The notes beneath the pieces are model-generated. The model made no database searches, had not been told where the DNA came from, and worked only from the letters and a program-made list of their open reading frames with translations. A stretch of 64,000 nucleotides of DNA from a virus. The stretch spans positions 1 to 64,000 of IMG/VR virus record IMGVR_UViG_3300016471_001035, one strand, 5' to 3'. The translations under genes and the position numbers were made by a program. The first letter of the stretch is position 1, and each line of letters begins with the position of its first letter. Positions 110 to 21,251 of the stretch are shown piece by piece.

Positions 110-718
110 ATGGCTGACGTAACAATATCTGGATTAACCTTAAATACTCCCAATAAAGATAGCGCAGTAATCCCTTATTCTGATGGCTCTACGACATATA
201 AGACGAGTCCTAGCGGGATAGTAGCGGCAAGTCCAGGTTGTGTGTTACAGGTACAACAAGCAGTTTATAGTGATCAAATAGATTATAATACGGGAGGCTC
301 AGGAATAACAACTTGGACAGATTTTCCTAATCTATCTGTTTCTATTACTCCAAAAGCACTTAATAGTAAGTTCCTCTTGAATGGAGTTGCTCATTTCTGT
401 ATGAACCCTACAACCTCATGTAATTTTAGATTTGTCAGAAATAACTCTCCTATAGGGGTAGGCTCATCCGGTGCAGGAGGACAAGCATCGTTTCGAAATA
501 GTAATGGCAATTCTCAATGGGCAACATGTGCTTCAAACATATTTCTAGACAACACAATTTTAACAAATCTTAATCCTATAGTGTATAAATTACAATTCCA
601 TCCATTTACAGGAGATCCCAGACAAATTAGACTTAATAACTCTTTTTATATTGCAGGTAATAATACTGATGGATTTAGATGTATATCTACTCTAACAGTA
701 CAAGAAATAGCTGGATAA
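110..718 (+). CDS. MADVTI-family short tail fibre/adhesin, tip class 1
   Basis: N-terminus MADVTISGL..P....IPYSDG.TTYK; C-domain G.VLQV...SVSITP...SKFL...STLTVQEIAG, typical of aquatic phage fibre tips; TAAATA 5 nt before ATG. Confidence 0.7.
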   Translation: MADVTISGLTLNTPNKDSAVIPYSDGSTTYKTSPSGIVAASPGCVLQVQQAVYSDQIDYNTGGSGITTWTDFPNLSVSITPKALNSKFLLNGVAHFCMNPTTSCNFRFVRNNSPIGVGSSGAGGQASFRNSNGNSQWATCASNIFLDNTILTNLNPIVYKLQFHPFTGDPRQIRLNNSFYIAGNNTDGFRCISTLTVQEIAG

Positions 719-726
719 ATACTAAT

Positions 727-1281
727 ATGGCCGATGTAACGATTTCTCAATTACAATCCAATACACCGAATAAGAATACAGCCGTAATCCCTTATTCTGA
801 TGGCACTACGACGTATAAAACCAGTCCTTCGGGTATAGTTGCGGCAAGTCCGGGTTGTGTTTTACAGGTAGTATTTGGTACCAACTCAACTGCTATATCA
901 CATACCTCAACATATGTTAATGTCATTTCACAAAGTATTACTACTATAGGTTCTAATAGTAGGATATTGGTATCTATAAATCAGCATTGTGCCACAGGAC
1001 AAGATGCAGGTATAGGCTTTAGAATATTAAGAGATGCTACAACCCTAATAACATATGGAGGTAATTCCACTCAAGGAGGTATACAGCAAGTAGGAGGAAC
1101 AGTCAATGTACAGATTAATAACCTTCTTAATTTTCAATATTTAGACACCGGACCATTAACTACAGGAACATCCTATACATACTATGGCCAAGCCAATAGG
1201 ATAGCTGGGGGTAATTTTGTTACCACAAACGTGGGAGGTAATAGAATTAGCACAATTTCCTTAATGGAAATAGCTGGATAA
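727..1281 (+). CDS. MADVTI-family short tail fibre/adhesin, tip class 1 (start moved from 679 to 727)
   Basis: Paralog of 110..718; MADVTI begins at 727, 5 nt after a TAAATA that overlaps the upstream stop codon; ends LMEIAG. Confidence 0.7.
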   Translation: MADVTISQLQSNTPNKNTAVIPYSDGTTTYKTSPSGIVAASPGCVLQVVFGTNSTAISHTSTYVNVISQSITTIGSNSRILVSINQHCATGQDAGIGFRILRDATTLITYGGNSTQGGIQQVGGTVNVQINNLLNFQYLDTGPLTTGTSYTYYGQANRIAGGNFVTTNVGGNRISTISLMEIAG

Positions 1282-1374
1282 TTTATTTTGTCTAATAACA
1301 AGAAGGGTTATCCTTTAGCTTTAGCGCACGGTTCAGAATCGAATTTTCCCGTACTTAGACATTAAATATTCAAT

Positions 1375-2007
1375 ATGGCTGACGTAACTATAGGTCAATT
1401 AAACTCGGGAATTCCCAGTAAGAATAGCGCGATAATCCCGTTTTCTGATGGCTCTACGACGTATAAAACAGCTCCAAGTGGGATAGTAGCGGCTAGTCCG
1501 GGATCTGTTCTTAAAGTGGTTAACGCTGTATTAACATCTCCCGTGACAACAACATCTTCTTCATATGTAAGTACCGGTTTATCAGTATCCATTACTCCTA
1601 CCTCTCTAAACAGCAAGATATTGGTGATGTTAACAGGAATAGCAACATCCTCAGATATTGGAGGATCACAAAGCTTGTTTAAAATAATAAGAAATAAACC
1701 TACTGCTAATACAGATGTTGACAATCAAAGTACTCAGTCCCTTGGAGGAGATGTGGCTTGTGCAGTTGTTGAGGGCAACTTACCTGGATATCCAGCCTAT
1801 CCATCCAATAACCCTGGAACTAGTAGTAGAAATAGAGGCAGTATAAATTGTACTTTATTAGATTCACCTAATTCAGCATCTCTGGTAACATATACGCTAA
1901 TGTTTAAAAATTATCAAGGAGCAGCTACAGCATTATTAGGAAGATGGAGTTGGGATACAAACTGGTCTACGCCAACAACGTTAACCTTAATGGAAATAGC
2001 TGGATAA
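1375..2007 (+). CDS. MADVTI-family short tail fibre/adhesin, tip class 1
   Basis: Same N-module and SPSGIVAASPG-like linker; GLSVSITPTS.NSKILV; ends LMEIAG. Confidence 0.7.
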   Translation: MADVTIGQLNSGIPSKNSAIIPFSDGSTTYKTAPSGIVAASPGSVLKVVNAVLTSPVTTTSSSYVSTGLSVSITPTSLNSKILVMLTGIATSSDIGGSQSLFKIIRNKPTANTDVDNQSTQSLGGDVACAVVEGNLPGYPAYPSNNPGTSSRNRGSINCTLLDSPNSASLVTYTLMFKNYQGAATALLGRWSWDTNWSTPTTLTLMEIAG

Positions 2008-2146
2008 ATAGACAAAAAACACATAGAATTTCGGGTTTTTTCAGGGAAAATGCAGGATTTTTAATAGGACTGATAGAGCCGGGCCCCTAGAGCTACAATA
2101 GGTTATAGAAGAAATACAGAAATAATGGGGAAATACCATTAAATGC

Positions 2147-3424: not shown

Positions 3425-3643
3425 GCAAAAGTCGAACAACTACATAACCAATACCTACAATTTGAAAAAGCTATTAGTAAGGTTAGCTATAATAAGCTTA
3501 CAGAATTGTTGGATGTTAATGAAAGTAATTTAGATAGTTTTGATAAAGTGTATGGGGATAAGGTTTGTGAATTGTTAGAAGTGTATGCTACTATCAAATC
3601 TATAATTAAGGAACGCAATAAGCTTGCCAAACTAGTTGACTAA
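3413..3643 (+). CDS. hypothetical early protein
   Basis: Leaderless after TTGTTT-N16-TATAAT; ends ..LVD* over the next -35 box. Confidence 0.65.
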   Translation: MLNKAKVEQLHNQYLQFEKAISKVSYNKLTELLDVNESNLDSFDKVYGDKVCELLEVYATIKSIIKERNKLAKLVD

Positions 3644-3663
3644 ATTTTAATTTCAGCCATAAT
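3636..3663 (+). promoter_or_regulatory. sigma70-type early promoter overlapping upstream stop
   Basis: TTGACT-N16-CATAAT-N6-ATG(3670). Confidence 0.8.
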
Positions 3664-3669
3664 ATAAAA

Positions 3670-4011
3670 ATGAAAACAAGTTGTAAAGTGTGTAATAATA
3701 AAGTGGTAGGGGCTAAAATTAGAGAGCTCTTTAAAGAGGGTTGTATAAAGAATGGTGCTACAGTTGAAGATGCCTATTATGCTAATATGCATAATTGTAG
3801 CAGATATAATAATAAGCTAGTAGATGGTTATAAGATTGTCTATAAAAGTTTAAATTATGGAGCATTCAAAATGTTTAAAAATGATCGCATTAATGTGCAA
3901 AAGGTATGGAAGTATGTATTAGAGCATATTAATAAGATTGATAGTGGGTGGGTGTATAGGGAGTATAGTGGAGAGCATTATGGGATTAGTAAGGAGTTTA
4001 GGGTTGACTAA
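3670..4011 (+). CDS. hypothetical early protein (N-terminal CxxC)
   Basis: ORF with its own promoter. Confidence 0.65.
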   Translation: MKTSCKVCNNKVVGAKIRELFKEGCIKNGATVEDAYYANMHNCSRYNNKLVDGYKIVYKSLNYGAFKMFKNDRINVQKVWKYVLEHINKIDSGWVYREYSGEHYGISKEFRVD

Positions 4012-4031
4012 ATCCAAACTTCCAATATAAT
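4004..4031 (+). promoter_or_regulatory. sigma70-type early promoter
   Basis: TTGACT-N16-TATAAT-N6-ATG(4038). Confidence 0.8.
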
Positions 4032-4037
4032 AGGAGT

Positions 4038-4328
4038 ATGATGAAAAGCAAAATTGAAAAAGTAGTTAGGGAGTTGAAAGCTGATTGTGAAACTGAATTT
4101 GAGGATAGTAATTATGAGGATGTAGTAACAGACTTATACCCCTATTTGAAGAGGATTAATGAGATTAGTGGGTTAAATGATAATAAGAAGCAAGATAAGA
4201 TTTATGAGGAGTTGAAGGATTTTTGTGGTGAAGCCTATTTCCATGTTGCTGAATGTATGTGGGCAGATTTTAATGATAGTTATATTGAAAAGACTGTTAA
4301 TAAGATTGAAGAGATTTTGGTTGACTAA
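4038..4328 (+). CDS. acidic hypothetical early protein
   Basis: D/E-rich ORF with its own promoter. Confidence 0.65.
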   Translation: MMKSKIEKVVRELKADCETEFEDSNYEDVVTDLYPYLKRINEISGLNDNKKQDKIYEELKDFCGEAYFHVAECMWADFNDSYIEKTVNKIEEILVD

Positions 4329-4348
4329 ATCTAAAATTCAGCCATAAT
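4321..4348 (+). promoter_or_regulatory. sigma70-type early promoter
   Basis: TTGACT-N16-CATAAT-N7-ATG(4356). Confidence 0.8.
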
Positions 4349-4355
4349 AGGAGGT

Positions 4356-4565
4356 ATGATGAAACTAGAAAGAAAGAAACAAATTAGTGAGCTTATTGAA
4401 GAGACATTCAATAATGTCACCAAACTAAATGACCTACTCAAGAAATCAGATTATGTGTGGGCCAGAAAGAATAGTGAATCTGAAAATGATGATGATTATG
4501 AATTGGCTGAATCCATTCTTGGGGTGGGAGAGAATCTTAAAGATTGGGGGAAGATGTTTGAATGA
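4356..4565 (+). CDS. acidic hypothetical early protein
   Basis: ORF with its own promoter. Confidence 0.6.
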   Translation: MMKLERKKQISELIEETFNNVTKLNDLLKKSDYVWARKNSESENDDDYELAESILGVGENLKDWGKMFE

Positions 4566-4765
4566 AAACAAAAAATAAGAAAAAGACATTTGAAGTTGAT
4601 ATTGCAGTCACTCTCTTTATCACAAAAGAAGTAGAAGCAGAAGATGAAGATGAAGCTCAATCTATTGCAGAGCATTCCATCAAGACAGGAACTGTTATGG
4701 ATGCTTGGCAGAGTGGAGATTGTGAGATTGAAAGTCAAGGATGTACTGAAGTGGAGGTAGAGTGA
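4562..4765 (+). CDS. acidic hypothetical protein (VEAEDEDEA motif)
   Basis: ATGA overlap with upstream gene; motif common in small phage proteins. Confidence 0.6.
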   Translation: MKTKNKKKTFEVDIAVTLFITKEVEAEDEDEAQSIAEHSIKTGTVMDAWQSGDCEIESQGCTEVEVE

Positions 4766-4980
4766 ATACATTCAAACCATACAATCAAACTAATGTGGTA
4801 GACTTCTATAAGGAGTTGGTGAAGAGGTGGGCAGATGATCAGTTAGATCAACTTCATGAATACCCCATCACTAATAGGAAAGAGGCATTAGAAAGGCTTC
4901 TAGATAGTTCTCTTGATGTGTTTAGGGATGATATTACTGAAGAGATCAGAAAAAGAAATTTATCTTTTTTGGTTGACTAA
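4762..4980 (+). CDS. hypothetical early protein
   Basis: GTGA overlap; ends ..LVD* over the next -35 box. Confidence 0.6.
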   Translation: MNTFKPYNQTNVVDFYKELVKRWADDQLDQLHEYPITNRKEALERLLDSSLDVFRDDITEEIRKRNLSFLVD

Positions 4981-5000
4981 AATCCCAATTCAGATATAAT
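4973..5000 (+). promoter_or_regulatory. sigma70-type early promoter
   Basis: TTGACT-N16-TATAAT-N6-ATG(5007). Confidence 0.8.
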
Positions 5001-5006
5001 AGGTGT

Positions 5007-5312
5007 ATGATGAAAAACAAACAACAGTATCTATCAATTGACTTGTATAATGGCAAAAGCAAGTGGATCTCTCAAAAAGACTTCCTTGCATTTACTATTG
5101 GAGATGAATATGATGGTAAAGATAGTAAAGGGTACTATTATGAGTATAAGACTGATGTGGGGAAAACTGAAAAAGAGTACTATAATTGGAGGGACAATTT
5201 TGAAGACATTCAAAAGACTCCTACCCATACCATCTATAAAACTGAAGAGTGTATGTTAATTGACTTCACCAATCATGACTTTAAGGGTAGTTGGTTAAAG
5301 GAGAACAAATGA
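5007..5312 (+). CDS. hypothetical early protein
   Basis: ORF with its own promoter. Confidence 0.65.
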   Translation: MMKNKQQYLSIDLYNGKSKWISQKDFLAFTIGDEYDGKDSKGYYYEYKTDVGKTEKEYYNWRDNFEDIQKTPTHTIYKTEECMLIDFTNHDFKGSWLKENK

Positions 5313-5470
5313 AAATCAATAAAGAACAAAAAGAGAAAGTACTAGAAGTACTAGAACAATTAGCTGAAGATGCAGGTTATGAGAGTTATGAGAGTGGTGG
5401 TATGGAGAATATTGATAATGTAAATCCATACTACAAGAAGATTTGTAGGGTTCTTAAACTCAACTCCTAA
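5309..5470 (+). CDS. small acidic protein (53 aa, not in ORF track)
   Basis: ATGA overlap; MKINKEQKEKVLEVLEQLAEDAGYESYESGG... Confidence 0.55.
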   Translation: MKINKEQKEKVLEVLEQLAEDAGYESYESGGMENIDNVNPYYKKICRVLKLNS

Positions 5471-5483
5471 CCCATCATAATGG

Positions 5484-5521
5484 AAAAGGCTTATTGTAAA
5501 AGATAAGTCTTTTCTGTTTTT
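5484..5521 (+). terminator. putative intrinsic terminator
   Basis: AAAAGGCTTAT-loop-ATAAGTCTTTT followed by CTGTTTTT. Confidence 0.5.
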
Positions 5522-5533
5522 ATATAGAAAAAT

Positions 5534-5670
5534 GTTCAGTCCAGTCCTCCCCCCTCCTGCCGTAACTTAAGGTGGTAGGTATATTGTATAGGGATTTAGG
5601 TTTTGGTCAATAACAAAATAGTATTTGACTTAAACCAAAATTCTACTATAATAGTTGTATGTTAAATAAA
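5534..5670. repeat. Divergent-promoter element, copy 2
   Basis: See copy 1; minus-strand TTGACC-N16-TACAAT (5610-5583) and plus-strand TTGACT-N16-TATAAT (5625-5652). Confidence 0.85.
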
Positions 5671-5847
5671 AACGAATTTGATAGTTTTGAGGAAATTGAA
5701 AAGTTTATTTATGAAATTGGGGATAGAGATTTAGAGATATATTTTGATAATTTGAAGGAAAGTTATGGGGTTAGTGAATGGGGGGAGGAAAGGATTATAG
5801 AGGAGTTTAGTAAGTATGTGGTTAAAAGTGGGATTTATTTTGTTTGA
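5659..5847 (+). CDS. acidic hypothetical early protein
   Basis: Leaderless; starts MLNK like 3413. Confidence 0.6.
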   Translation: MLNKNEFDSFEEIEKFIYEIGDRDLEIYFDNLKESYGVSEWGEERIIEEFSKYVVKSGIYFV

Positions 5848-5877
5848 ATAAAAAGTAATTTCCAATATAATATAAAA

Positions 5878-6129
5878 ATGATGAATAAAGAAGTTAAAAA
5901 TATATATGGTGGTGAATTGGTAAGTGAAAAGGATGTAATTTGGGATGATGATAAGGAGGTGTTTATTTGTAAGAAAGAATTGGAGGAGGGTAAGTATTAT
6001 GGTTATTATTGTGATGTAAGTAATGAGGGGTTTGTATTTTGGAAGAAAGATGGGAAGGTAGATTATGATGTAGGAGATGTGGATGAATATGGTGATTGGA
6101 TTTTAGTAGAGAAAGGAATTGTTAAATGA
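5878..6129 (+). CDS. acidic hypothetical early protein
   Basis: TTGAAT-N16-TATAAT (5844-5871) upstream. Confidence 0.6.
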   Translation: MMNKEVKNIYGGELVSEKDVIWDDDKEVFICKKELEEGKYYGYYCDVSNEGFVFWKKDGKVDYDVGDVDEYGDWILVEKGIVK

Positions 6130-6398
6130 ATAAAGGATTGAAAGTTAATAGAGGAGAGGATATGGATAGTTTGTATGAAAGTATGGAATATGATTTTGAG
6201 AATGGAGCGGGTATTATTGATAGTTTGAAGCGTATTAATAAAGTTCCGAAAAAGGATTGGGTAAAAGTATTAGAAGGGTTTAAGGAGTGGGAGTTAAGGG
6301 AGTTGGGAGAGAATAGTGAATGGGATAAAGATGAAATGGATAAAGAGAGTGTTGAGTTTATAGAGAAGAATAAGATTAAATGGAATTGGATGTATTGA
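6126..6398 (+). CDS. acidic hypothetical early protein
   Basis: ORF track; E/D/K/W-rich. Confidence 0.55.
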   Translation: MNKGLKVNRGEDMDSLYESMEYDFENGAGIIDSLKRINKVPKKDWVKVLEGFKEWELRELGENSEWDKDEMDKESVEFIEKNKIKWNWMY

Positions 6399-6440
6399 TT
6401 TTGGAGTTGACAAAAAAGTAAATTCCCGTATAATAGGAGT

Positions 6441-6656
6441 ATGATGAAGAAAATATATTTGAATATTGATTGGATGAGTAGGAGTGTTAGTGTTAGTGAT
6501 AAAGAGGGATTTGAGGATTGGAAAAAGTATTTGGTGGAAGAGAATAAATGTGGGGAGAATAAGGATGGGAATAGTTTGGAGATTTATAATGAGGATGATG
6601 AAGATGAGGGTGATAGTATGGTAGAGTTAGAGATTGAAGAGAAAGATTTGTATTGA
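6441..6656 (+). CDS. highly acidic early protein
   Basis: TTGACA-N16-TATAAT (6407-6434) upstream; EDDEDEGD tract. Confidence 0.65.
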   Translation: MMKKIYLNIDWMSRSVSVSDKEGFEDWKKYLVEENKCGENKDGNSLEIYNEDDEDEGDSMVELEIEEKDLY

Positions 6657-6686
6657 CCCAAATCTAAATTCCCCTATAATATGTGT

Positions 6687-6881
6687 ATGATAAATGATAC
6701 AGAGAAGAGTGAGAGGGAGTTGTTTATAGCTTATACAATTGAGAACATTATAAATGGGCTCAAATATATTGGCAATGAAGTGGATCCAGAGAATACCCCA
6801 GCCTGGAATAGTATTAGAAAGCAGTTAGAAACTATTGATAATCAGGTTGATAGGCTGGTAAACAGGACTAAATGGAAATGA
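6687..6881 (+). CDS. hypothetical early protein (start probably 6687)
   Basis: TTGACC-N16-TATAAT (6653-6680), then 6 nt to ATG 6687. Confidence 0.6.
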   Translation: MINDTEKSERELFIAYTIENIINGLKYIGNEVDPENTPAWNSIRKQLETIDNQVDRLVNRTKWK

Positions 6882-7105
6882 AGTTCTCTTATAAGAAGCT
6901 GATTGATGAGCATACAAAAGCTCTCAAGTTAAGATGGGGGGATGATTGCCTCTCTAAAGGAAGTAAGACTGCTATCAATTATGGATGGGGGCAGACAGAT
7001 AACTCTATCTGCTCTAAAATTTATTTGGAGAGTGGGCATCAAGTTTTAGATACTTGGTTTGATGAAGAGGATATGATTTACAGGTCAGCACAATCAGATT
7101 ATTGA
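6872..7105 (+). CDS. hypothetical early protein
   Basis: ORF track; overlaps the upstream stop. Confidence 0.55.
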   Translation: MEMKFSYKKLIDEHTKALKLRWGDDCLSKGSKTAINYGWGQTDNSICSKIYLESGHQVLDTWFDEEDMIYRSAQSDY

Positions 7106-7140
7106 GTTGACTAAACTTAAAGTTCTTTCATAATAATAGC

Positions 7141-7278
7141 AGTTCCTTCCGCAGTACGGGTTTGACTAGCCCAATTGATGTACTGAAGCCCCAACGCCCA
7201 GAGTCTGAGGCGGGTAAAGGTGGGTATATTGTCCTAACTACTGTCGACGTTACTAGAGTAGGGGAGTCGGAAGGAGCT
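7141..7278 (+). ncRNA. putative structured non-coding RNA (~138 nt), family not recognised
   Basis: Promoter TTGACT-N16-CATAAT (7107-7134) with no ATG at +1; 5' AGTTCCTTCCG pairs with 3' CGGAAGGAGCT; internal stems; U-tract follows. Confidence 0.7.
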
Positions 7279-7322
7279 ACTTTTTTAGTTGACGCAAACA
7301 GAAGTTCAGCCATAATAGTAGT

Positions 7323-7493
7323 ATGATGAAATTCGAAACACAAAGACAGATTGAATATTGGTTGGAAGAAATGAATAACGGACATTTCGATAATATGTAT
7401 GAGAATTGTTGTGATATGTATGATAGTGAGGTGTTGATTGTTGATGAGTTTAATAATCAAATCAATTTCTTCTTGAGTGAGGCTTGTCCATAA
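7323..7493 (+). CDS. small acidic early protein (56 aa, not in ORF track)
   Basis: TTGACG-N16-CATAAT-N6-ATG; MMKFETQRQIEYWLEEM... Confidence 0.6.
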   Translation: MMKFETQRQIEYWLEEMNNGHFDNMYENCCDMYDSEVLIVDEFNNQINFFLSEACP

Positions 7494-7533
7494 TTTGGCT
7501 TGACCCAAACCTACATTCAGCCATAATAGTAGT

Positions 7534-7701
7534 ATGATGACAATGACGATCAGAGAAGCGGTGAAGAAGTATAAGAAGAAGGATACGTGCAGGTACTTCT
7601 TGAAATGTACCAATAAAGCCACCACCACCATCCCCAGTCCTATTCTGGGTGAGGTGCCTGCTTGTAAGAGCTGTTCAGACTTCTATAAGAGACAATCATG
7701 A
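7534..7701 (+). CDS. small Cys-rich early protein (55 aa, not in ORF track)
   Basis: TTGACC-N16-CATAAT-N6-ATG; C-x5-C...CxxC, possible Zn finger. Confidence 0.6.
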   Translation: MMTMTIREAVKKYKKKDTCRYFLKCTNKATTTIPSPILGEVPACKSCSDFYKRQS

Positions 7702-7925
7702 CATACAGAGTTACTTGGTATTCAATGTGGGCCAGACCTCAGATATATGATGGGCTCACCAAGCAAGAAGCAGATACTTTAGTCTGGCAGGGTAGGGAGA
7801 GTCAGTATAAAGTAAAGGTAGAAGAGTTTGAGATAGATGGTGATAATCGAACTACACTCGAATAACGCCCCCCGAGCTTAAACTTTATAGTTGACCAACC
7901 CCCAAGAAGCACCTACAATAGTAGT

Positions 7926-8246
7926 ATGATGAATAAAGAAGTTACTTACGAGATCTACGATACAATGATTGGTGATTGGCGCAAAGTCTCCGAGCCTGCT
8001 ATCGGAGGTATTAAGTGGGAGAAGCGTGAGCAGATCGGGGATGAGGTCCAATCTGCCTATTACGATAACTCCTTCTACAAGGTACCCTTCTATGGCCCTT
8101 ACGATCAGGGTCGTATCCATCGTGCTCTCAACAATTTATATCCCGCACGATTCAATAAGTTCGGTGGTTATACTACCGTTTCAAGCGTAGAGCAGCTTGA
8201 TGATCAACACATTAAGGTAGAGCTCTGCTACCATATCGGAGACTAA
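7926..8246 (+). CDS. hypothetical early protein
   Basis: TTGACC-N17-TACAAT-N6-ATG. Confidence 0.65.
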   Translation: MMNKEVTYEIYDTMIGDWRKVSEPAIGGIKWEKREQIGDEVQSAYYDNSFYKVPFYGPYDQGRIHRALNNLYPARFNKFGGYTTVSSVEQLDDQHIKVELCYHIGD

Positions 8247-8248
8247 CT

Positions 8249-8467
8249 ATGACAAGTAAGCTCAGAGCATTCGAAGACATCATATTAAACATACCAGAAA
8301 CGTGCGAGCTTAAGGGAGCTCTAAGGGGCGCTATCAACGATAGTGATATTCGTACCGAAGATAAGCGTCGGTTACATATGCACATCAATCAATGTAACAC
8401 TATCAACGACTTACAGAGGTTATTCTACAACGCTTTACTCAAGTATGAAGGACATGGAGTTGTATGA
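8249..8467 (+). CDS. hypothetical protein
   Basis: ORF in operon; ends FYNALLKYEGHGVV. Confidence 0.55.
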   Translation: MTSKLRAFEDIILNIPETCELKGALRGAINDSDIRTEDKRRLHMHINQCNTINDLQRLFYNALLKYEGHGVV

Positions 8468-8760
8468 GTTGGGTGGCTCGTAAGATTTGTATGTCAGATG
8501 ATGTTAATCAAGATCAAGTTATCAAAGAGTACTTTGATAAGAAGGAGATGAAACTACTTGAAGAACAAGAGATTAAGAAGTTCTGGGAAGAGTATGGTGA
8601 TGAATACTATACAGGAGGCGAATAATGGATAAGCTTATACACTTCTGTTTGATGGTGTTAGCTAACCTCATTGCTCTGGCCATCTACGCACTTGTGAGTA
8701 TTACTATCTGGAAGAGCATTTGGTAGTTGCCGTTAACCCAAGTTCCATTATAATAGGAGG

Positions 8761-8988
8761 ATGATGAATAACACAGTAACCGTTGAATTGCCTCGGGCTG
8801 AGAAGGCTGAGGATAGTACAGGAGGTAAGGTAGGCTATTGCATCGGCACCCTTCTTAACCTCAAACAAATGATGCATATCAATTCTGGTAGGGGTGGTGA
8901 GGGAGTGTTCTCTCAGTCTGAGATGCTCCAACAGATCGATAAGGTTATCGACAAGCTAGATCAGATCACTTACCCTTACGCGGTTTAA
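8761..8988 (+). CDS. hypothetical early protein
   Basis: TTGCCG-N16-TATAAT-N6-ATG. Confidence 0.6.
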   Translation: MMNNTVTVELPRAEKAEDSTGGKVGYCIGTLLNLKQMMHINSGRGGEGVFSQSEMLQQIDKVIDKLDQITYPYAV

Positions 8989-11901: not shown

Positions 11902-12321
11902 TTAATTTCCATATATTACAATATATACAGGATTACAATCATAGTATGCACCTCTTACATTATCATAACCTGCACCGATAACAACAGATTCCACAGTAGG
12001 ACTCTGTGCAAAATATACAGATATACCGGACCCTGTATTTGTATTAGCTGTTACATTTACAACATATTTGTTGTCTCTCATTGGTGTACTAAAGTAGATC
12101 GTGTATATACCGGTTCCATTTCTTACAACACTTTGAACATTATAAGAGGAATTAATTGTAGCCGAAGAGCCATTAAAGCTAACCCATGCCTTAGGTATAA
12201 AAGGTAACGAACTTAGCTGTGCCAACGTTGTTGAAAAAGTAACACCGTCTTTACTAATAGGTAGAATACTAGCAGAGGTAGGTACAGTATTGGTTAATTG
12301 GGATATTGTTACATCGGCCAT
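11902..12321 (-). CDS. MADVTI-family fibre/adhesin, tip class 2
   Basis: PKAWV.FNG....I.SSYNV.SV.R.GTG.Y...F...M.D..Y.V tip. Confidence 0.7.
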   Translation of the reverse strand: MADVTISQLTNTVPTSASILPISKDGVTFSTTLAQLSSLPFIPKAWVSFNGSSATINSSYNVQSVVRNGTGIYTIYFSTPMRDNKYVVNVTANTNTGSGISVYFAQSPTVESVVIGAGYDNVRGAYYDCNPVYIVIYGN

Positions 12322-12326
12322 ATCAA

Positions 12327-12368
12327 ATATTTAATAATCTGAACCGTGCTAATTCACTACGTTCGTAA
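12327..12368 (-). repeat. 42-bp inter-cassette repeat, copy A
   Basis: Minus strand TTACGAACGTAGTGAATTAGCACGGTTCAGATTATTAAATAT; 3 differences from copies B/C. Confidence 0.9.
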
Positions 12369-12369
12369 T

Positions 12370-13002
12370 TTATAATGCTAGCTCAACAGCAATAATATTT
12401 GAAGTTGTGGCGTGTCTATAACCTGATTCCCATCTACCAACGTTTTTGACCCACGGTTGACCACCGTTAGTTGTAGGGTTAATTAACCAGATTGAATAGG
12501 TCACCGGTAGTATGGTATTTGGACTATCTACATACATAAACGTATGTGGTATTTGATATGCATAAAACGAGTGTGACATAGCATTGCCCTCTGCATTTGG
12601 CGTATAAGATGTACTGCCTACTGTATACGGTGTAAGACTGGCAGAATATACACGCTGTCTTGTTTGGTTATCAATAGATCTATAGAGACGTGATACTACA
12701 GAGATATTTTCTGTAGCACCCTTTAGATCATACCAAACTAAAATTTGACTTGCTGTATATTTTGGAGTAATAGTTACAGTCATATTTGTTACCTGATATT
12801 CTGTAGTACCGTTTGCAAAATTAATTACTTGATGATCATTATTTGGTGATTGCACTATGTTAAATAGTGCTCCTAGAGGTATACATGAGGCAGTTAAACT
12901 AGATGCAAGCGTTTTAAAAGTATTGGTACCATTGCTGAAAGGTATTACGTTATCACCACTAGGTGTAGATGTATCTAGTTGCGATATTGTTACGTCTGCC
13001 AT
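12370..13002 (-). CDS. MADVTI-family fibre/adhesin, tip class 1 (divergent)
   Basis: VTITPKYTASQILV...DSPNT..PVTY...IIAVELA. Confidence 0.7.
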   Translation of the reverse strand: MADVTISQLDTSTPSGDNVIPFSNGTNTFKTLASSLTASCIPLGALFNIVQSPNNDHQVINFANGTTEYQVTNMTVTITPKYTASQILVWYDLKGATENISVVSRLYRSIDNQTRQRVYSASLTPYTVGSTSYTPNAEGNAMSHSFYAYQIPHTFMYVDSPNTILPVTYSIWLINPTTNGGQPWVKNVGRWESGYRHATTSNIIAVELAL

Positions 13003-13007
13003 ATTAG

Positions 13008-13049
13008 ATATTTAATAATCTGAACCGTGCTAATTCGCTTCGCTCGTAA
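13008..13049 (-). repeat. 42-bp inter-cassette repeat, copy B
   Basis: Minus strand TTACGAGCGAAGCGAATTAGCACGGTTCAGATTATTAAATAT. Confidence 0.9.
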
Positions 13050-13057
13050 GGATAGCC

Positions 13058-13705
13058 CTACCCGGCAATTTCCATTAATGTAAGGGTAGATGCATATCTA
13101 CCTTCAAAATCATTTGAAGAGCGATTAATATACCAGTTTGTAGCATTGCTAGCAAACTGTACTTTATATATATGCGTGCCTCCCCCGGGTGTATCTAAAA
13201 AATTCATTACATGCGCTCTTGCATGATTACCATCTCCAAAAAATGAACTTGGAGTTGATGCTTGTATTTTACCTGATGCCGCGTCACCCACACATATTGG
13301 TGTACTGCCTCTTACAAGCCTAGAAAATAGAGAACCTGCATTTGACCCACCATTACCGGTGAACATAACTAATACTTTATTATTTGACGAACGCATAGTA
13401 ATAGAGGTGCTTAAACCTATATCTGTAAATGTAAGAGCTCCTGTTGTACCTTGAAATACATCTGTTTTAACACTTGATTGTACTTGTACAACAGAGCCAG
13501 AAGGTAGAGAGGATATATAACCATTAGGGTTTGTTGTACCGTTATAGGGAGTATAACCTAATGCAGTAGTAATCTGTGCTGATGTCATTACTCCACATAC
13601 CTGGCTTAATGTTACCTTTCCTGTTGTAGATCCATCGGTAACCGGTAGAAATAAACCAGTAGAAGGTGCTAGAGGACTTAGATTATTAATCGTTACATCG
13701 GCCAT
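13058..13705 (-). CDS. MADVTI-family fibre/adhesin, tip class 1
   Basis: ITTALGYTPYN.TNPNGYIS linker; GSVVQVQS.VKTD...STLTLMEIAG. Confidence 0.7.
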   Translation of the reverse strand: MADVTINNLSPLAPSTGLFLPVTDGSTTGKVTLSQVCGVMTSAQITTALGYTPYNGTTNPNGYISSLPSGSVVQVQSSVKTDVFQGTTGALTFTDIGLSTSITMRSSNNKVLVMFTGNGGSNAGSLFSRLVRGSTPICVGDAASGKIQASTPSSFFGDGNHARAHVMNFLDTPGGGTHIYKVQFASNATNWYINRSSNDFEGRYASTLTLMEIAG

Positions 13706-13710
13706 ATATT

Positions 13711-13752
13711 ATATTTAATAATCTGAACCGTGCTAATTCGCTTCGCTCGTAA
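13711..13752 (-). repeat. 42-bp inter-cassette repeat, copy C
   Basis: Identical to copy B. Confidence 0.9.
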
Positions 13753-13792: not shown

Positions 13793-14644
13793 CTATACTC
13801 TAGATATTGTAACTAATGATGTTGTCCAATAACCAGTAAATGCGTAAGTTGGACTAAAATACGAAGTACTCGAAGCATTAAAATCTATTAAATCTCCTGC
13901 AGTAAAAGAGCCTCCATAAACAAATACACCCGGACACCATCCGTCCCCCGTAGGTGCATACGAACGACGCTGACCAATTGAGCTACCATTTTTATTACAC
14001 TGTATAATAACTCTATCACTATTTGTACCGCCATTTCTTATACTAACATTAAAATTAAATTCTATTACATATGTTCCAGTTGTAGGAATTGTATAACGAT
14101 AATTAGTATTATCCCAAGAGCCCTCTCTAACGTATAAAGGGTTGTTTAATGCACATCTATAAAAAGTGCCAGGTGAGTTATTTGAAAATGTTTGATCTGT
14201 ACCGTTTATTAAAGCAAGCGGATTGATATTTTTACCATATATTCCTACAGATGATATTTTTAACCTTTCTGTTAAAGTATGTGGTACATCTTCTGCCGCA
14301 CAGTATATTTTAATTAAACCACCATCATTTGTAGTGTTGTTTGTATTTTCAGCCTGTATTCTTACTGCAGTATATTGGCCTACAGCAGCTTTTACGTCCA
14401 GATCTAAACTCGGACTTGTACCAGAGCTTCCTGTTTCCGGTGCTATTCTTAAGCCTGCAGTAGTATTACTAGCTATATCTAGTGCGTAAGTAGATGAAGT
14501 TGTTTTGTTAACATTTACATTTTTAGTATTTTGAAATATAGCCGATACCGGAACAGCCAAAGTATTTGAACCGGTACTAAATGGAATAGCTGCATTTCCT
14601 GACGGTGTGCCTTTCGGCAAAGAGGATATCGTTACGTCTGCCAT
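13793..14644 (-). CDS. MADVTI-family fibre with C1q-like C-terminal tip
   Basis: ERLKISS fibre motif; WDNTNYRYTIPTTGTYVIEF...KNG...AGDLIDF matches a C1q/TNF-like jelly roll. Confidence 0.65.
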   Translation of the reverse strand: MADVTISSLPKGTPSGNAAIPFSTGSNTLAVPVSAIFQNTKNVNVNKTTSSTYALDIASNTTAGLRIAPETGSSGTSPSLDLDVKAAVGQYTAVRIQAENTNNTTNDGGLIKIYCAAEDVPHTLTERLKISSVGIYGKNINPLALINGTDQTFSNNSPGTFYRCALNNPLYVREGSWDNTNYRYTIPTTGTYVIEFNFNVSIRNGGTNSDRVIIQCNKNGSSIGQRRSYAPTGDGWCPGVFVYGGSFTAGDLIDFNASSTSYFSPTYAFTGYWTTSLVTISRV

Positions 14645-14653
14645 ATCAATTAT

Positions 14654-15103
14654 TTAGGGGTGAAACACAACAAAGCTTCCAAATATATAATCTTGATATG
14701 CTGCATTAAAGCTCATTGTATAAAAATGAAATGCATCTACGGTAGGTGTCGGCATTGCAACATCAAAGCACGTCCCGCTCTGTACAACTATTAAATGATA
14801 CCCATCACCATTACATGTATTTCTACCTTGACCTAGAACAGTATAATGAACAGATGGCATTGGTGTGTTGAATTCAACCCTATATTTACCTTGTCCCAGG
14901 CGTGTTAGTGTCTTTATGTTATAGCTATTGAGTATCACTGCATTTGGATTAACACTATAATTACAAATAGCCTTTGGTATAAAGGGTAGCGAACTGAGCT
15001 GTGCCAACGTCGTTGATTGGGTAACCCCACCTTGGCTAATTGGTATAATACCGCCAGTATTAGGCGTTGCATTGGCTAATTGTGATATTGTTACATCGGC
15101 CAT
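14654..15103 (-). CDS. MADVTI-family fibre/adhesin, tip class 2
   Basis: STTLAQLSSLPFIPKA linker shared with 11902 and 15109. Confidence 0.7.
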   Translation of the reverse strand: MADVTISQLANATPNTGGIIPISQGGVTQSTTLAQLSSLPFIPKAICNYSVNPNAVILNSYNIKTLTRLGQGKYRVEFNTPMPSVHYTVLGQGRNTCNGDGYHLIVVQSGTCFDVAMPTPTVDAFHFYTMSFNAAYQDYIFGSFVVFHP

Positions 15104-15108: not shown

Positions 15109-15516
15109 TTACCTATAAATAACTACGTAAACTGAATTTGCATTATAAGCTACTGTCCACGGTAGCCCCGTCGTTATAGTTAAACTGCCTGCTGTTTGGC
15201 CTACTACGGAAGCTACATACTGACTATCACATGAACATGAAACAACATATTTGTTATCTAACATTGATTCACTAAAAAATACTGTATAGCTTCCTTGACT
15301 GTTTTTTGTAACACTAGAAACATTAAAAGAGGAATTTATTGGCGCGCTCCCTACCGCACCAGAACCATTAAAGTTAACCCATGCCTTAGGTATAAAAGGT
15401 AACGAACTTAGCTGTGCCAACGTAGTTGATAGGGTAACACCGTCTTTACTGATAGGCAAAATACTATTAGTAGTAGGTGTTGTGTTAGTTAATTGAGATA
15501 TCGTTACATCGGCCAT
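15109..15516 (-). CDS. MADVTI-family fibre/adhesin, tip class 2
   Basis: PKAWVNFNG...SSFNVSSVT...G.YTV.F; ~48 bp identical to the 11902 gene. Confidence 0.7.
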   Translation of the reverse strand: MADVTISQLTNTTPTTNSILPISKDGVTLSTTLAQLSSLPFIPKAWVNFNGSGAVGSAPINSSFNVSSVTKNSQGSYTVFFSESMLDNKYVVSCSCDSQYVASVVGQTAGSLTITTGLPWTVAYNANSVYVVIYR

Positions 15517-15517: not shown

Positions 15518-16252
15518 TTACCACCTCAATATTACTACTCCATTTTTACCGGGACCTGATCCCGACGTACCTCCTGATGCACCGCCGGTGCCTACGTTTA
15601 TTGTCAGCACTTGTCCTGGTGTAACTGTTAAAAATCCCATTGCATAACCCCCGCCGGCACCAGCCCATCCTGTATTGCCTCCCGGATTGCCGGGAGTTCC
15701 AATACCGCCCCCTCCATAATATTTGAACCCCAATGGCCTATGTCCTTGACCTCCATATTGATACCAACCTCTACCATCAGTGTTAGACCCGGCCATGATC
15801 CAGCTATTATCCTGATTGCCTGCATTGTATCCAGTATCATTACCATTAATACTTAAAGATACTAAAGCACCGGTGCAGGTACCGCCTATTCCTGGTACGT
15901 TATCTCCGTTGCCTCTACCTCCATTTGCAACTATATCATAGCCGGTTATAGATGATGCGGTACCCGCGACACCTCTATTAAATCTTGCACCCCCGCCCCC
16001 TCCACCTCCTACAAGATGTGCTTCAATGCGAGTTGTATCAGCAGGTACTGTAAATGTACCTGAGGTCTCGAAAATCTGTATACCTCTCATACCGGCATTT
16101 AAAGGTATAGACGGCTTATTTGTCAGGCTATTATAATCTACTTGCAAAGCTGATAATTGTGCTTTACCGGTTGTACTTCCATTTGATATAGGGACATACA
16201 AAGGCCCGGTTGGGCTAAGATCACTTAACTCTGTTATAGATACATCGGCCAT
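15518..16252 (-). CDS. MADV(S)I-family protein with glycine-rich tail domain
   Basis: FETSGTFTVP...VGGGGGGG...GAGGGYA...VTPGQ...VGTGG...GVVILRW. Confidence 0.7.
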   Translation of the reverse strand: MADVSITELSDLSPTGPLYVPISNGSTTGKAQLSALQVDYNSLTNKPSIPLNAGMRGIQIFETSGTFTVPADTTRIEAHLVGGGGGGGARFNRGVAGTASSITGYDIVANGGRGNGDNVPGIGGTCTGALVSLSINGNDTGYNAGNQDNSWIMAGSNTDGRGWYQYGGQGHRPLGFKYYGGGGIGTPGNPGGNTGWAGAGGGYAMGFLTVTPGQVLTINVGTGGASGGTSGSGPGKNGVVILRW

Positions 16253-16289
16253 TTAAATATTTAATATATTGTTACTATAAATATTAATA

Positions 16290-16637
16290 GTGAATAAGGA
16301 CTGTCATTTAATATATGAGGCATATACTAGCCCGGGTACTCCTACAGTACCTACTTCACCGACAACAACTAATATACCTTTAGCACAGGCTGTTAATAAA
16401 CCTACCGGACCGGCTTCACCCTCTACGAAAGCAGAGGAGGCAGAAAAGAAGACAAAAGAAAAATCAATTACTCTAACAGATATAGATTCAGATAGAAAAG
16501 CAATACATGCTGCATACGATATTGTCGAAGCAATTTATAAGACGGTTGACAACTTTGATCGCGCTACTCAAGTTATTGCTGCAATAGCTTCTGTACACCG
16601 TAACGAACGTAAGAGGCAATCTACTCTCAAAAAATGA
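16290..16637 (+). CDS. late hypothetical protein, putative head-internal
   Basis: TATAAATA upstream; N-terminus MNKDCHLIYEAY. Confidence 0.55.
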   Translation: MNKDCHLIYEAYTSPGTPTVPTSPTTTNIPLAQAVNKPTGPASPSTKAEEAEKKTKEKSITLTDIDSDRKAIHAAYDIVEAIYKTVDNFDRATQVIAAIASVHRNERKRQSTLKK

Positions 16638-17499: not shown

Positions 17500-17832
17500 T
17501 TAGGCAACAGCGTAAATAACTCTATTTAAAACTTTACCGTCTGCAAAATAAATTATTACTTCTGCGTACCCCTCGTTTAATTTAATGAGTTTTTCATCAA
17601 CTTTTATACCTTGTGAAAGGCTGTCGACATAAAGATTAGTAACTAAATCGTTAGCTTGCTCTTGTGTTAAATCAGTTCCATGGGTAACAGTAAATCCGGA
17701 TGCAGAGTGTACTAGGGTATAGCGGGAAGTATCTAGCGTTTCTTTATAAAAAAGAATAACTTCTGTTAGCGCATTATTATTTTGATTGTCTGAATATATA
17801 TTGCTATATTGGTCGTATATATCTACTCTCAT
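17500..17832 (-). CDS. hypothetical late protein
   Basis: ORF with TAAATA upstream. Confidence 0.55.
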   Translation of the reverse strand: MRVDIYDQYSNIYSDNQNNNALTEVILFYKETLDTSRYTLVHSASGFTVTHGTDLTQEQANDLVTNLYVDSLSQGIKVDEKLIKLNEGYAEVIIYFADGKVLNRVIYAVA

Positions 17833-17843
17833 ATTATTATTTA

Positions 17844-20645
17844 TTAATACTTATATATTCTCAAACTATTAAATCTCATATTTTGCAAGTCACCTCCAGA
17901 GGACCCCACGTTCTCAGTATATATTCTAAATTCTTTTAATACTCCTGACTTATTAACTGTGCTTGTTTCAGCACCTCGGGTAACTGTAATCTCTACATTA
18001 TTGGATGAAGTTTGCTTTGCAACTATATCAAACACACTAGTCTGACTGTATCCCCACCCTAGAAGTGATCCATTAAAGTAATAATCATTACTGGTTACAG
18101 AGAAATTAACTAAAAAGTTTCCATTACTATCAAATAAGTTAACACCTTTACCACCATCTCTATATGCTAAGGCTACTTTAATAGATGCAGCATATCCAAC
18201 AGCAAGATTACTACTAAATGGTCTATTAAAGTAACCAGTCCCCGGGTTACTAGACCATATACCGAACGCCTCACCATTGGTGTTAATATCACCAAACCCT
18301 TGTGTAGTAGAACTACCTATATAGCTACCTGCATTTGATGTTGTCACACTCCATGAGTTAAATCCTGTTCCTCCATTATCACCACCACTTATAGCATCGT
18401 CATCATAAGGGGAATTTGAAGCCACGTCCTCACCACCCGGAGACGTTGTTGGTGTGGGTGAGGGTGTCGCTGTTATTGTTACACTAGGGGTAACTGTTGT
18501 AGTTATCGTGGGTGTTTGGGTTACTGTAGGTGTAGGCGTTTCTGAGGCTGTATTTGAAGGTGTAGGTGTATTTGTTGGCGTATTAGTCGGTGTTAAAGAT
18601 TGAGTAGGTGTTTGTGAAGGTACAAATGGTTCATTGGACGGTGTTTGTGTAATCGTGGGTGTTACTGTTGGTGTTATTGTAGGTGTTGGCGTTTCTGAGG
18701 ATGTATTAGATGGTGTTAACGTTGGTGTAGGTGTCTCTGTTTCTGTAGGTGTAACTGTGGGTGTGGGTGTCTCTGTTTCTGTGGGTGTGTATGTAGGCGT
18801 TTCCGTTGGAGTAATAGTAGGTGTAGGTGTTGGTGTTTCTGTCTCAGATGATGTAATAGTAGGCGTAGGTGTTGGTGTATTTGTCGAAGTTACGGTTATT
18901 GAAGGTGTTGGTGTAGGGGTAGGTTGTATAAAAGGATATACCTTAAAGCTATTAAAGTATAAGTTATTCCTATCATCCCCTGCATTGGTATCAGATACAT
19001 AAAGCTTGTGACCGCGAAGAACATTACTAATCGTTGTTATATTATAATCACCATTAGGCCTGCTCACTGTTATTTGCAGTGTATTTGAACCGGTTTGTGC
19101 TACTACTATTTCAAATACAGACGTTTGACTATAAGTCCACCCTTGGTCAACACCGTTAACCTGATATTGATTACTACCTACATTAAAGTTCCAAACTTCA
19201 TTACTATACCCGGTATCACTAAACAGCGAAATACCCTTATTACCATTTCTAAATGCAATTGCAAGGATAGCTGAAAAAGCATAGCCAACAGTTAAATTAG
19301 AGGAGAGATTTCTCCTTAAGTCAATAAAGTTACTACCAGCTGGATTTGCATATGCGCCGAATGCTTTACTATTAGTTGTTATATCTCCAAAGCCTTGTGT
19401 AACGCTATCTGAGCCTATAAATGCACCGGCAGTACCGTTTAAAGCAAAACTCCAATCATCAAATCCCGGCCCTGCGTCAATACCGTTATTAAATCCAGAA
19501 TTATAAACAGAGTTATTTGCATTATCTTCAAATATGGTTTGTGTGGAAGAAGGTGTAACTGTCGGTGTAGGTGTACCGGTTGGGGTTTCCGTAGGTGTAG
19601 GCGATTCAGTAGGTGTAAATGTAGGTGTTTCTGTAGGTGTAGGTGTTACCGTTGGAGTAGAAGTCTCTGTTTCTGTGGGTGTGTATGTAGGTGTTTCCGT
19701 TGGAGTAATAGTAGGCGTAGGTGTTGGTGTTTCTGTCTCAGATGATGTAATAGTAGGCGTAGGTGTTGGTGTTTCTGTCTCAGATGATGTAATAGTTGGT
19801 GTCACTGAAGACGTATTTGTTGGAGTAATAGAAGGTGTATTAGATGGCGTTACTGTTGATGTATTTGTTACAGTCGGCGATGGTGTAGATGTTTGTGTTG
19901 TAGTAGAAGTAGGCGTTGCAGTAGGTGAGCTTGTAGGTGTATTGGATATAGTTGGCGTTGTTGTGGGGGTTTTAGTCACCGTTGGCGTACTCGTTCTGGT
20001 TACTGTAGGTGTAATAGTTTGTGAAGGCGTTATTGACGGGGTAGGTGATGTTGTTGGTGTTACTGAAGGTGTAACTGCAGGCGCTTCTGTTTTTGTTAAA
20101 GTAAATATTGCTGACCCCGTGCTAGAATAAAACCAAGTATAATAAACATTTTGTGATGTTATTAAAGTAGTAGATTCTGAAATAAAGATTTTATCATCAT
20201 TAGTAATTACATTTACTAAATTATATGCAGAAAGATAGCAGCTATTAAAATCATTTATATCAAAATTATTTTCTACCTCAAATGAGAACCCATCACCTTG
20301 AATAGTAAAATATGTTGTAGTGTTTGAAACCGTTACGTTTATAATGTTAGCTGTAGGTAGGATGTTTATTGTTTGACCGGTTGTATTGACATCAAAGCTT
20401 TGTACCGCACCAGCTACATCTCCCGCACAATAACTACCTGCAGATTCTTCTTCTAATTTTGTAAGCTCTACGGCTCTTTGCTCAAACAATATTCTTCTTT
20501 CGAGTTCAGTTTCTGCCATCGAATCAAACAACATTTTCTTTTGAATATTGTTTGGAACCGGTTTATCCCAAGTTGGTTTATCTGGAGGGAAGGTATAGCT
20601 TCTTCCATCCGATAAAGCATCTAAATATTCATCAAACCAGTCCAT
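17844..20645 (-). CDS. large virion-surface protein with two mucin-like Thr/Pro tracts and two related beta-rich domains
   Basis: (TPT/ETPTP)n tracts; duplicated domain D.A.NS.Y...G...G.GF..WS....AG..IG....QGFGDI.TN..AFG...GW.YSQTSVF. Confidence 0.75.
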
Positions 20646-20687
20646 AGGATATATATTATTTATAACTATTTAGATTAAATATTTTAA

Positions 20688-21251
20688 ATGCCCGATATTA
20701 CAATAACAGGATTAGGGGACTTAGCTCCTGCAGCAAATACGTATATACCTATTTCTAACGGAACAGTTACCGGAAAAGTACTATATACTGGAAATGCTAA
20801 CCCTACCGGTTCTATTATAATGTGGCCTACAGAAACCCCGCCAAGCGGGTATTTAGAATGCAATGGTGTTGCTGTCAGCAGAACAACTTATGCTAGCTTA
20901 TTCACCGCTCTAGGTACAAGATACGGCATAGGGGATGGGTCTACAACTTTCAATTTACCTGATTTAAGAGGAGAATTTATTAGAGGGTTTGATAATGGTA
21001 GAGGTATAGATACAGGAAGAGCCTTAGGATCATCACAATTAGATCAATTCCAAGGTCATTACCATGCTAAATCTACAGCTGGATTGCAAGGTGGAACTGC
21101 TACTTTAGGTGCAAACTCCGGAGGAAACATTTACGCGGGGTCAAATGCTGAGATAAGGCAACCCACTACAGACGGAGTCAACGGCGCGCCGAGAACTGGT
21201 ACAGAGACCCGTCCACGTAATATTGCTTTAATGTACTGTATTAAGACTTAG
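20688..21251 (+). CDS. tail-collar domain fibre protein with MADVTI-like N-module (MPDITI)
   Basis: PTGSII.W....PPSGYLECNG.AVSRTTYA.LF..LGT.YG.GDGSTTFNLPDLRGEFIRG...ETRPRNIALMYCIK. Confidence 0.9.
   Translation: MPDITITGLGDLAPAANTYIPISNGTVTGKVLYTGNANPTGSIIMWPTETPPSGYLECNGVAVSRTTYASLFTALGTRYGIGDGSTTFNLPDLRGEFIRGFDNGRGIDTGRALGSSQLDQFQGHYHAKSTAGLQGGTATLGANSGGNIYAGSNAEIRQPTTDGVNGAPRTGTETRPRNIALMYCIKT

Follow-up and report, generated by a model that had tools for sequence, protein, structure and literature searches.

The first 64 kb of the 139,594-bp viral contig IMGVR_UViG_3300016471_001035 (IMG/VR; CheckV completeness 66%), referred to here as the window, carry arrays of small genes whose products begin with MADVTI or a close variant of it. 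The MADVTI proteins share an N-terminal module of ~40 residues, after which they diverge into tips of several distinct classes. On the best reading of the observations described below, the genes probably form a library of cassettes, each encoding a trimeric adhesin or receptor-binding protein of lectin type that is built on a common N-terminal docking module. The individual proteins are most likely homotrimeric knobs and short fibres with an adhesin or receptor-binding role, and judging from its gene content the source genome is that of an uncultured, distant T4-type myovirus.

The MADVTI family and its N-terminal module

A hidden Markov model (HMM) of the module was built from residues 1-45 of the 12 genes in the window and used to search all six reading frames of the contig in translation. 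The 12 open reading frames starting MADV(T/S)I or MPDITI that had been listed in a first-pass annotation of the window were all found at the expected positions, with E values of 1e-18 to 3e-21. That annotation had nevertheless undercounted the family: three further copies lie outside the window, giving 15 in total at E <= 2e-9. The next match had an E value of only 0.09, which argues that the 15-copy family is not a product of chance. The total is a lower bound, because the contig begins 109 nucleotides (nt) before the first copy. The proteins span 73-283 amino acids (aa). The genes, named by their first coordinate (g110, etc.), are as follows:

110-718 (+): MADVTI gene, 202 aa, class A tip (predicted TNF-like); TAAATA box at 99-104
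727-1281 (+): MADVTI gene, 184 aa, class A tip; TAAATA at 716-721, overlapping the stop codon of the preceding gene
1375-2007 (+): MADVTI gene, 210 aa, class A tip; modelled with AlphaFold2 (AF2), tip residues 44-210 predicted as a TNF-like jelly-roll
11204-11893 (-): MADVTI gene, 229 aa, 'ATVATTGSYNDL' fibre linker, singleton tip
11902-12321 (-): MADVTI gene, 139 aa, class B tip; TAAATA at 12328-12333
12370-13002 (-): MADVTI gene, 210 aa, divergent class A tip ending AVELAL
13058-13705 (-): MADVTI gene, 215 aa, 'CGVMTSAQITTALGYTP' linker, class A tip
13793-14644 (-): MADVTI gene, 283 aa, C1q-like tip (1.4e-12 to a C1q-class profile)
14654-15103 (-): MADVTI gene, 149 aa, class B tip (reads PKAICNY); without a TAAATA of its own, coupled to g15109
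15109-15516 (-): MADVTI gene, 135 aa, class B tip; AF2 model (predicted local distance difference test, pLDDT, 92), residues 43-135 predicted as a tailspike-type C-terminal beta-sandwich
15518-16252 (-): MADVSI gene, 244 aa, glycine-rich tip; first gene of the minus-strand array, TAAATA at 16258-16263
20688-21251 (+): MPDITI gene, 187 aa, T4 gp12-type collar tip (PF07484, 1.4e-25; phmmer with T4 gp12, 3e-11)
80618-80839 (-): extra copy found with the module HMM, 73 aa, MGDVTI
93060-93791 (-): extra copy found with the module HMM, glycine-rich, MADITI
94526-95377 (-): extra copy found with the module HMM, 283 aa

M1, D3, I6, L9, P14, P21 and T28 are invariant across the module, and conservation fades at around residue 36-40. 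In AF2 models of two tip classes (g1375 and g15109) the module adopts the same secondary structure, comprising a turn at residues 6-8, a hairpin at ~19-24/27-32 and a short helix at 33-38 (pLDDT 67-90). These monomer models are consistent with the earlier expectation that the N-modules share a fold across classes.

A profile search of 1.84 billion representative proteins returned 427 clusters at E <= 1e-3, including 105 at E <= 1e-10. In 149 of the best 150 of the 427 clusters the module begins at residue 1, and the lone exception looks like a mis-called start; the proteins of these 150 are 42-400 aa in length. None of ten metagenomic clusters that were sampled carries a name, the module matches no Pfam family, and its motif was not found in the published literature. 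Protein searches of cultured phages gave tip-only matches for g15109 and nothing for g13793, and the module was found in none of them. A word-based search with a 729-aa protein from the related locus L039 (region 1-45) returned no long module-bearing fibre in the 400-1276-aa length band.

Several interchangeable linker types recur between module and tip: ALGYTP, SYNDL..NKP, NIGIGT, or none. The proteins had been described as a two-part fusion of module and tip; the modular architecture stands, but many members are in fact three-part, with a linker between the two.

The mini-member at 80618-80839 (-), which corresponds to L043:16618-16839, consists of the module and a short end (…GDIYYQVT). It is kept in several relatives as proteins of 57-83 aa, and could act as a cap or as a competitor for the socket.

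Tip classes and predicted folds

Tip classes were assigned by BLASTP and by local class HMMs of the C-terminal parts, and those recognised in the first-pass annotation were reproduced. Class A ('EIAG' type) comprises g110, g727, g1375, g13058 and g12370, and class B ('PKAW..FNG') comprises g11902, g15109 and g14654; the tips of g15518 and g93060 are glycine-rich. The tip of g11204 is a singleton that carries a SYNDL fibre motif, and in an Atlas structure search it resembled uncultured T7-tail-type fibre tips.

The class A tip was modelled from g1375 with 40 homologues (AF2, pLDDT 78). The model matched the C-domain of Chlamydia Pgp3 and the Photorhabdus PLTL TNF-like lectin with Z scores of 14.0-14.3 (root-mean-square deviation, rmsd, of 2.2-2.4 Å over 126-130 residues), and the BC2L-C lectin with a Z score of 12.9. 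Matches with Z scores of 8.8-10.5 were obtained to BxpB/ExsFA, a Bdellovibrio MAT fibre tip, C1q domains and the binding domain of the cyanophage A-1(L) short tail fibre. The class A tip is accordingly modelled as a TNF/C1q-type jelly-roll.

The class B tip, as modelled from g15109, was closest to residues 661-758 of the Pam1 tailspike (Z 8.7, rmsd 1.7 Å over 70 residues, 23% identity), and this match ranked clear of the next ones; weaker matches were to the distal domains of other tailspikes and fibres (phiAB6, LKA1, AP22 and R-pyocin fibre tips) and to an H-type lectin. The class B tip also matched PHROG 11355 (tail fibre) at 3e-16. The collar domain of g20688 scored 89.4 bits against PF07484, for which the cut-off is 24, and the nearest Atlas clusters to g13793 are C1q. 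Among the tips of relatives, Pfam recognised C1q (P0021, 9.4e-6), Gly_rich_2 and Peptidase_S74.

Peptidase_S74 is a self-cleaving chaperone of trimeric fibres. The known examples of the tip folds found here are trimeric, and the MADVTI proteins are for this reason likely to be trimers as well. Taken as a set, the fold and profile matches to lectins, tailspikes, tail fibres and the collar support the earlier proposal that the tips have folds of a receptor-binding type.

Late promoters and shared 5' DNA

The first-pass annotation had assigned most of the genes a late promoter of their own. A TAAATA box was found to start 11-12 nt upstream of the ATG, with 5-6 nt between box and start codon, in 10 of the 12 window genes; it is missing before the tightly coupled g14654 and g15109. 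The arrangement TAAATA-N5/6-ATG occurs at 43 sites genome-wide, compared with ~12 in shuffled sequences. These counts support expression of the cassettes from individual late promoters. Neither sigma-70 promoters nor intrinsic terminators are enriched inside the array. The possibility that leaderless translation has shaped the conserved N-terminus was considered and discarded, as late genes outside the family combine this promoter geometry with N-termini of unrelated sequence.

At 696-721 and 1982-2010 the last codons and stop of class A genes (…GCTGGATAAATA) themselves constitute the TAAATA box of the next gene, and 1259-1281 and 1985-2007 are an identical 23 nt. Because class A gene ends form the next TAAATA box, a DNA-level constraint may act on some of the 'EIAG' end.

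Near-identical DNA of ~48 bp had been claimed at the module/tip junction of g11902 and g15109, and an exact run of 49 nt was found there:

12180-12228 (-): 49-nt tract at the module/tip junction, codons 32-47; identical to 15375-15423
15375-15423 (-): 49-nt tract; identical to 12180-12228

The run corresponds to nt 94-142 of both genes, and its flanks are ~67-97% identical per 30-nt block. A conserved spacer of ~42 nt that includes GCGAAGC separates cassettes, immediately upstream of the late promoter, at 12322-12369 (-), 13003-13057 and 13706-13752, and a related core of this spacer precedes g1375. The copies also have codons in common: GCC (Ala) and ACG (Thr) are rare in the genome, each accounting for 8-9% of its codon family, and GCC is found at codon 2 in six of the 15 copies and ACG at codon 5 in five; Val4 is encoded by GTA in 11. 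The shared rare codons and the conservation of promoter and spacer DNA indicate that the 5' DNA of the family has a common origin or has undergone gene conversion.

Hot spots and tip exchange among relatives

Relatives were sought by a pattern scan of IMG/VR, which yielded 35 loci with 1-9 module genes each. One 25.6-kb contig that is syntenic with positions 1-21 kb of the window has 14 copies, and five larger related contigs have 3-9 each. In 11 loci the array occupies the same place, beside homologues of the genes at 16290, 21241 and 24680, and differs in number and tip mix; array content is thus not fixed across relatives. The edge of this hot spot is marked by the following gene:

16290-16637 (+): conserved gene, 115 aa; borders the hot spot in 11 related loci

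The first-pass annotation had placed the family in two convergent arrays. These are present, with ~9 kb of small early genes in between, but copies are also found elsewhere: two flank the gp14 neck gene in this contig, and relatives have copies behind the large terminase gene. The position downstream of gp14 is a further insertion point, with a copy there in four relatives. Insertion between a 106-aa gene and gp14 was seen in this genome only, with a 57-aa remnant in L035. In L015, L021, L023, L024 and L040 a module gene encoding 233-367 aa lies directly behind the large terminase gene, where this genome has none.

In the hot-spot loci the backbone genes are 80-98% identical, as against 40-68% for the best tip matches. 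About 250 family proteins fall into 63 BLAST-level tip clusters, and 153 protein pairs are at least 80% identical over their first 48 residues although their tips belong to different clusters. One such case is the class A protein g13058, whose N-terminal part and linker recur in P0052 and P0053 joined to a class B tip. On the strength of the 153 discordant pairs and of arrays of differing content at one hot spot, tip swapping over evolutionary time is well supported by sequence comparison, and the earlier proposal that tips are exchanged on a constant module is borne out. It had also been suggested that this occurs without a diversity-generating retroelement (DGR) or an invertase; consistent with this, neither reverse transcriptase (PF00078) nor serine invertase (PF00239) had a match anywhere in the contig, which is 66% complete.

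Two further features of the hot spot were observed. A 402-aa fibre with Mtd_N and Peptidase_S74 domains (24680-25888, -) lies beside it in 11 loci; this protein starts MADTITKI, yet the module HMM gives no match to it. The segments 17500-17832 and 17844-20645 separate the 16290 gene from the 21241 gene, an insertion that the 11 related loci lack. The second of them (-) encodes a protein of 933 aa in which long Thr/Pro tracts accompany a duplicated domain of ~200 aa, and has no Pfam or PHROG match.

Proposed role of the family and alternative explanations

In the organisation proposed here, residues 1 to ~40 would form the common docking module, with a strand-like MADVTI..L start, a beta-hairpin at the I-P-x-S-x-G turn and a short helix. 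Through this module every trimer would attach to one type of site on the particle, with the baseplate or another fibre as the most likely place, and the remainder of each protein would be an interchangeable tip of a glycan-binding type. The genes form self-contained cassettes, grouped at a small number of hot spots within the conserved T4-like backbone, and run in the order late promoter abutting the start codon, module, optional linker and tip. The repertoire would change through tandem duplication and through recombination in the conserved 5' DNA (promoter, spacer, module and linker), the latter placing new tips on an old anchor. The proteins would accordingly be built into the virion at a common socket, and virions may be mixed or variable in composition.

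A number of observations weigh against this proposal. The family is known from sequences and predicted structures, and its presence in virions is inferred from these; the AF2 models are of monomers, so trimerisation and docking are likewise inferred. The module has no detectable relative among solved structures or known anchors, and its profile gave zero matches to PDB sequences at E <= 10. The tip folds also occur in lectins that are not of phage origin. No homologue of T4 gp9, gp10, gp11 or Wac was found by phmmer in the 139.6-kb contig, a negative result that has to be read with the divergence of the baseplate proteins, which is too great for PHROG or Pfam annotation. Finally, 15 different trimers exceed the six-fold sites of a T4-type baseplate, which would require competition for sites, many sites, or branching among the members.

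A socket was sought with PHROG and Pfam among 20 large late proteins of the tail and baseplate region, and no candidate emerged; these proteins gave only sheath, tube, tape measure, hub, gp6, PKD, NHL and glycosyltransferases. The gp13 homologue does not align to T4 in its middle part (domain III region). One form of the proposal would provide many equivalent sockets, whether these belong to a network of fibres, to the sheath or capsid, or to the MADVTI proteins, so that each virion would carry a stochastic combinatorial coat drawn from at least 15 lectin-type trimers. Here the TNF-like trimers of class A could accept N-terminal peptides in the manner of ExsFA. This form is unlikely; if true, it would amount to a bet-hedging host-range system without a DGR or invertase, with a repertoire re-dealt between relatives by cassette recombination at leaderless late-promoter junctions.

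The same stoichiometry would be less of a difficulty if the proteins were decoration fibres of the neck, capsid or sheath, which would provide general adhesion to host or environmental glycans and would not be infection-triggering receptor-binding proteins. Sites on the capsid and sheath are numerous enough, and T4 carries 12 fibritin trimers on domain III of gp13, so the neck can hold many (PMC12929629). The members are also very short (135-283 aa), and their genes are found on either side of gp14 here and after it in the four relatives mentioned above. However, in marine T4-like phages the hypervariable cluster for host recognition is known to be bounded by gp14 (PMC7029224), and adjacency to it is therefore expected without any neck function. 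The copies behind the large terminase gene, the similarity of the tips to distal domains of tail fibres and tailspikes, and the lack of any relation to the fibritin N-domain in profile tests (hhalign probability 0.65%) also speak against decoration, which is considered rather unlikely. The module might instead be a tag for folding, trimerisation or chaperone recognition, or might dock members onto one another, with class A trimers as sockets for chains or branches. Its invariable position at the free N-terminus, a 73-aa mini-member that is hardly more than module, and the conserved 115-aa gene adjoining the arrays would suit such a role, as would the match of class A tips to the spore anchors ExsFA/BxpB, which bind the N-terminal peptides of other proteins (PDB 9h3d, 8d02). 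The ExsFA likeness is a fold match only, however; TNF-like, C1q and collar domains trimerise unaided, relatives bearing S74 bring their own chaperone, and the cassettes lack individual chaperone-like partner genes, all of which makes this explanation improbable.

Non-structural roles were also considered, in which the products are late lectins, either soluble or directed to the host surface (where they might, for example, mask receptors or exclude other phages), or head-internal proteins targeted by a shared leader. The T4 internal-protein locus combines a shared N-terminal leader, one promoter per gene and variable bodies, i.e., the same genetic logic, and a gp21-type prohead protease is encoded in the contig. 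An L/I-x-E cleavage motif is nevertheless missing from the module in 12 of the 15 copies, there is no signal peptide, and the tips match tail-fibre families and trimeric fibre chaperones; roles of this kind are very improbable.

Several specific homologies were examined for the module and set aside. T4 fibritin was a lead because Wac starts MTDIVLNDL and copies of the module flank gp14. The HMM comparison with T4 Wac gave no N-terminal match, the hhalign result quoted above was for 265 modules against nine fibritin N-termini, and the start is not conserved among those nine fibritins. Neck synteny as evidence for a neck socket was weakened, gp14 being a published cluster border and relatives having insertions behind the terminase gene or no copy before gp14. 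The module HMM gave no match to KP32 gp38, which speaks against homology to the KP32 docking peptide, and a capsid-targeting leader of the T4 internal-protein type is unlikely given the 12 modules without the protease site.

Genome context

The assignment to the T4-type myoviruses draws on the major capsid protein (38807-40330), which has ~32% identity to cyanophage gp23, and on the portal, gp21-type prohead protease, NrdA, sheath, tube, large terminase and tape measure recognised in the contig. Searches by phmmer with T4 gp6-gp15 and other T4 proteins matched gp4, gp5 lysozyme, gp6, the gp12 tip, gp13, gp14 and gp15. The gp13 gene lies at 42648-43724 of the window, and those for gp14 and the sheath at 93791-94519 and 99071-101368 of the contig; the baseplate region also encodes proteins of 1143, 1047 and 1195 aa. 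Cultured phages gave zero DNA-level matches to the contig.

The homologue of T4 gp4 (head completion) at 42187-42648 (-; phmmer 6e-23) also matches the Pfam TnsA-like endonuclease N-terminal domain (1.1e-19). Between the arrays, at 3636-8780, small early genes are preceded by ~10 near-identical sigma-70-type cassettes (TTGAC, 17 nt, TATAAT, with the ATG a few bases on).

Comparison with known systems

Modular tail fibres, host recognition by multiple proteins, and conserved N-terminal ends with hypervariable C1q tips in marine viromes are already known. Four features are new. A single T4-like genome has 15 or more small paralogues with one module of ~40 residues in common; this module recurs in hundreds of clusters of unnamed metagenomic proteins, almost always at residue 1 among the best of them; the genes are organised as cassettes at hot spots, with a late promoter of their own next to the start codon; and the small lectin-type tips cover a broad range. 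Current annotation misses the family, with no Pfam family, functional PHROG name, cultured member or paper found. If the module is a generic plug, it would represent a natural plug-and-play mounting of small binding domains on a T4-type particle, with 15 members per genome and over 60 tip types in a small sample, a scale for which no phage precedent has been described. The module would likewise offer a concrete way to study how the abundant uncultured myoviruses of aquatic habitats follow the diversity of host surfaces. Each tip is a short and probably self-folding lectin-type domain, and the constant module could be used as bait for the socket.

The closest parallel for the module is the dual receptor-binding protein (RBP) system of the Klebsiella phages KP32, K11 and KP34, which combines an RBP2 docking peptide with a T4gp10-like branching domain in RBP1 (PMC6872550, PMC13352976). 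In KP32 a 29-residue N-terminal peptide of RBP2 is necessary and sufficient for incorporation (PMC13352976). As there, a short peptide at the extreme N-terminus is found here on otherwise unrelated, exchangeable bodies. The systems differ in that KP32 is a podovirus with one such secondary protein per phage, whose bodies are large depolymerases, whereas the present genome is that of a T4-like myovirus with at least 15 proteins bearing lectin-type knobs of 100-250 aa. No gp10-like domain was found by phmmer with T4 gp10 in this genome, which is 66% complete and has a highly diverged baseplate.

Many receptor-binding proteins encoded side by side are also known from multi-tailspike phages, namely the Ackermannviridae with TSP1-4 (PMC11414711) and the Alcyoneusviruses RaK2 and phiK64-1 with 10-11 depolymerases (PMC10253068). 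In those phages, conserved N-terminal parts join the proteins into one branched complex; the order of branching is fixed, and the N-terminal domains are large and differ from one another. Here, a single 40-residue module is common to the whole family, and relatives have anywhere from 1 to 15 copies. The 'metaviromic islands' of marine phages contain C1q-domain proteins with a conserved N-terminal end and a hypervariable C1q tip (PMC3909814), and pelagi- and cyanomyophages have a hypervariable host-recognition cluster with variable fibre genes bordering gp14 (PMC7029224). Both are single genes or unordered islands, and not one N-module across a large paralogue family. T4 fibritin (Wac) docks 12 trimer copies on gp13 domain III through an N-terminal domain of ~50 residues (PMC12929629), but the present proteins have neither a long coiled coil nor a foldon, and their AF2 models are beta-sandwiches without a long helix.

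A cellular counterpart is provided by the MAT fibres of Bdellovibrio bacteriovorus, with 21 paralogues per genome, an invariant N-terminal domain and swappable trimeric tips that include TNF-like lectin and S74 types (PMC10769870). The MAT fibres differ in being ~1000 aa in length, with long beta-prism shafts and an unrelated N-domain; at the level of the tip, however, the two systems are similar, with class A matching the tip of Bd2734 at a Z score of 10.5.

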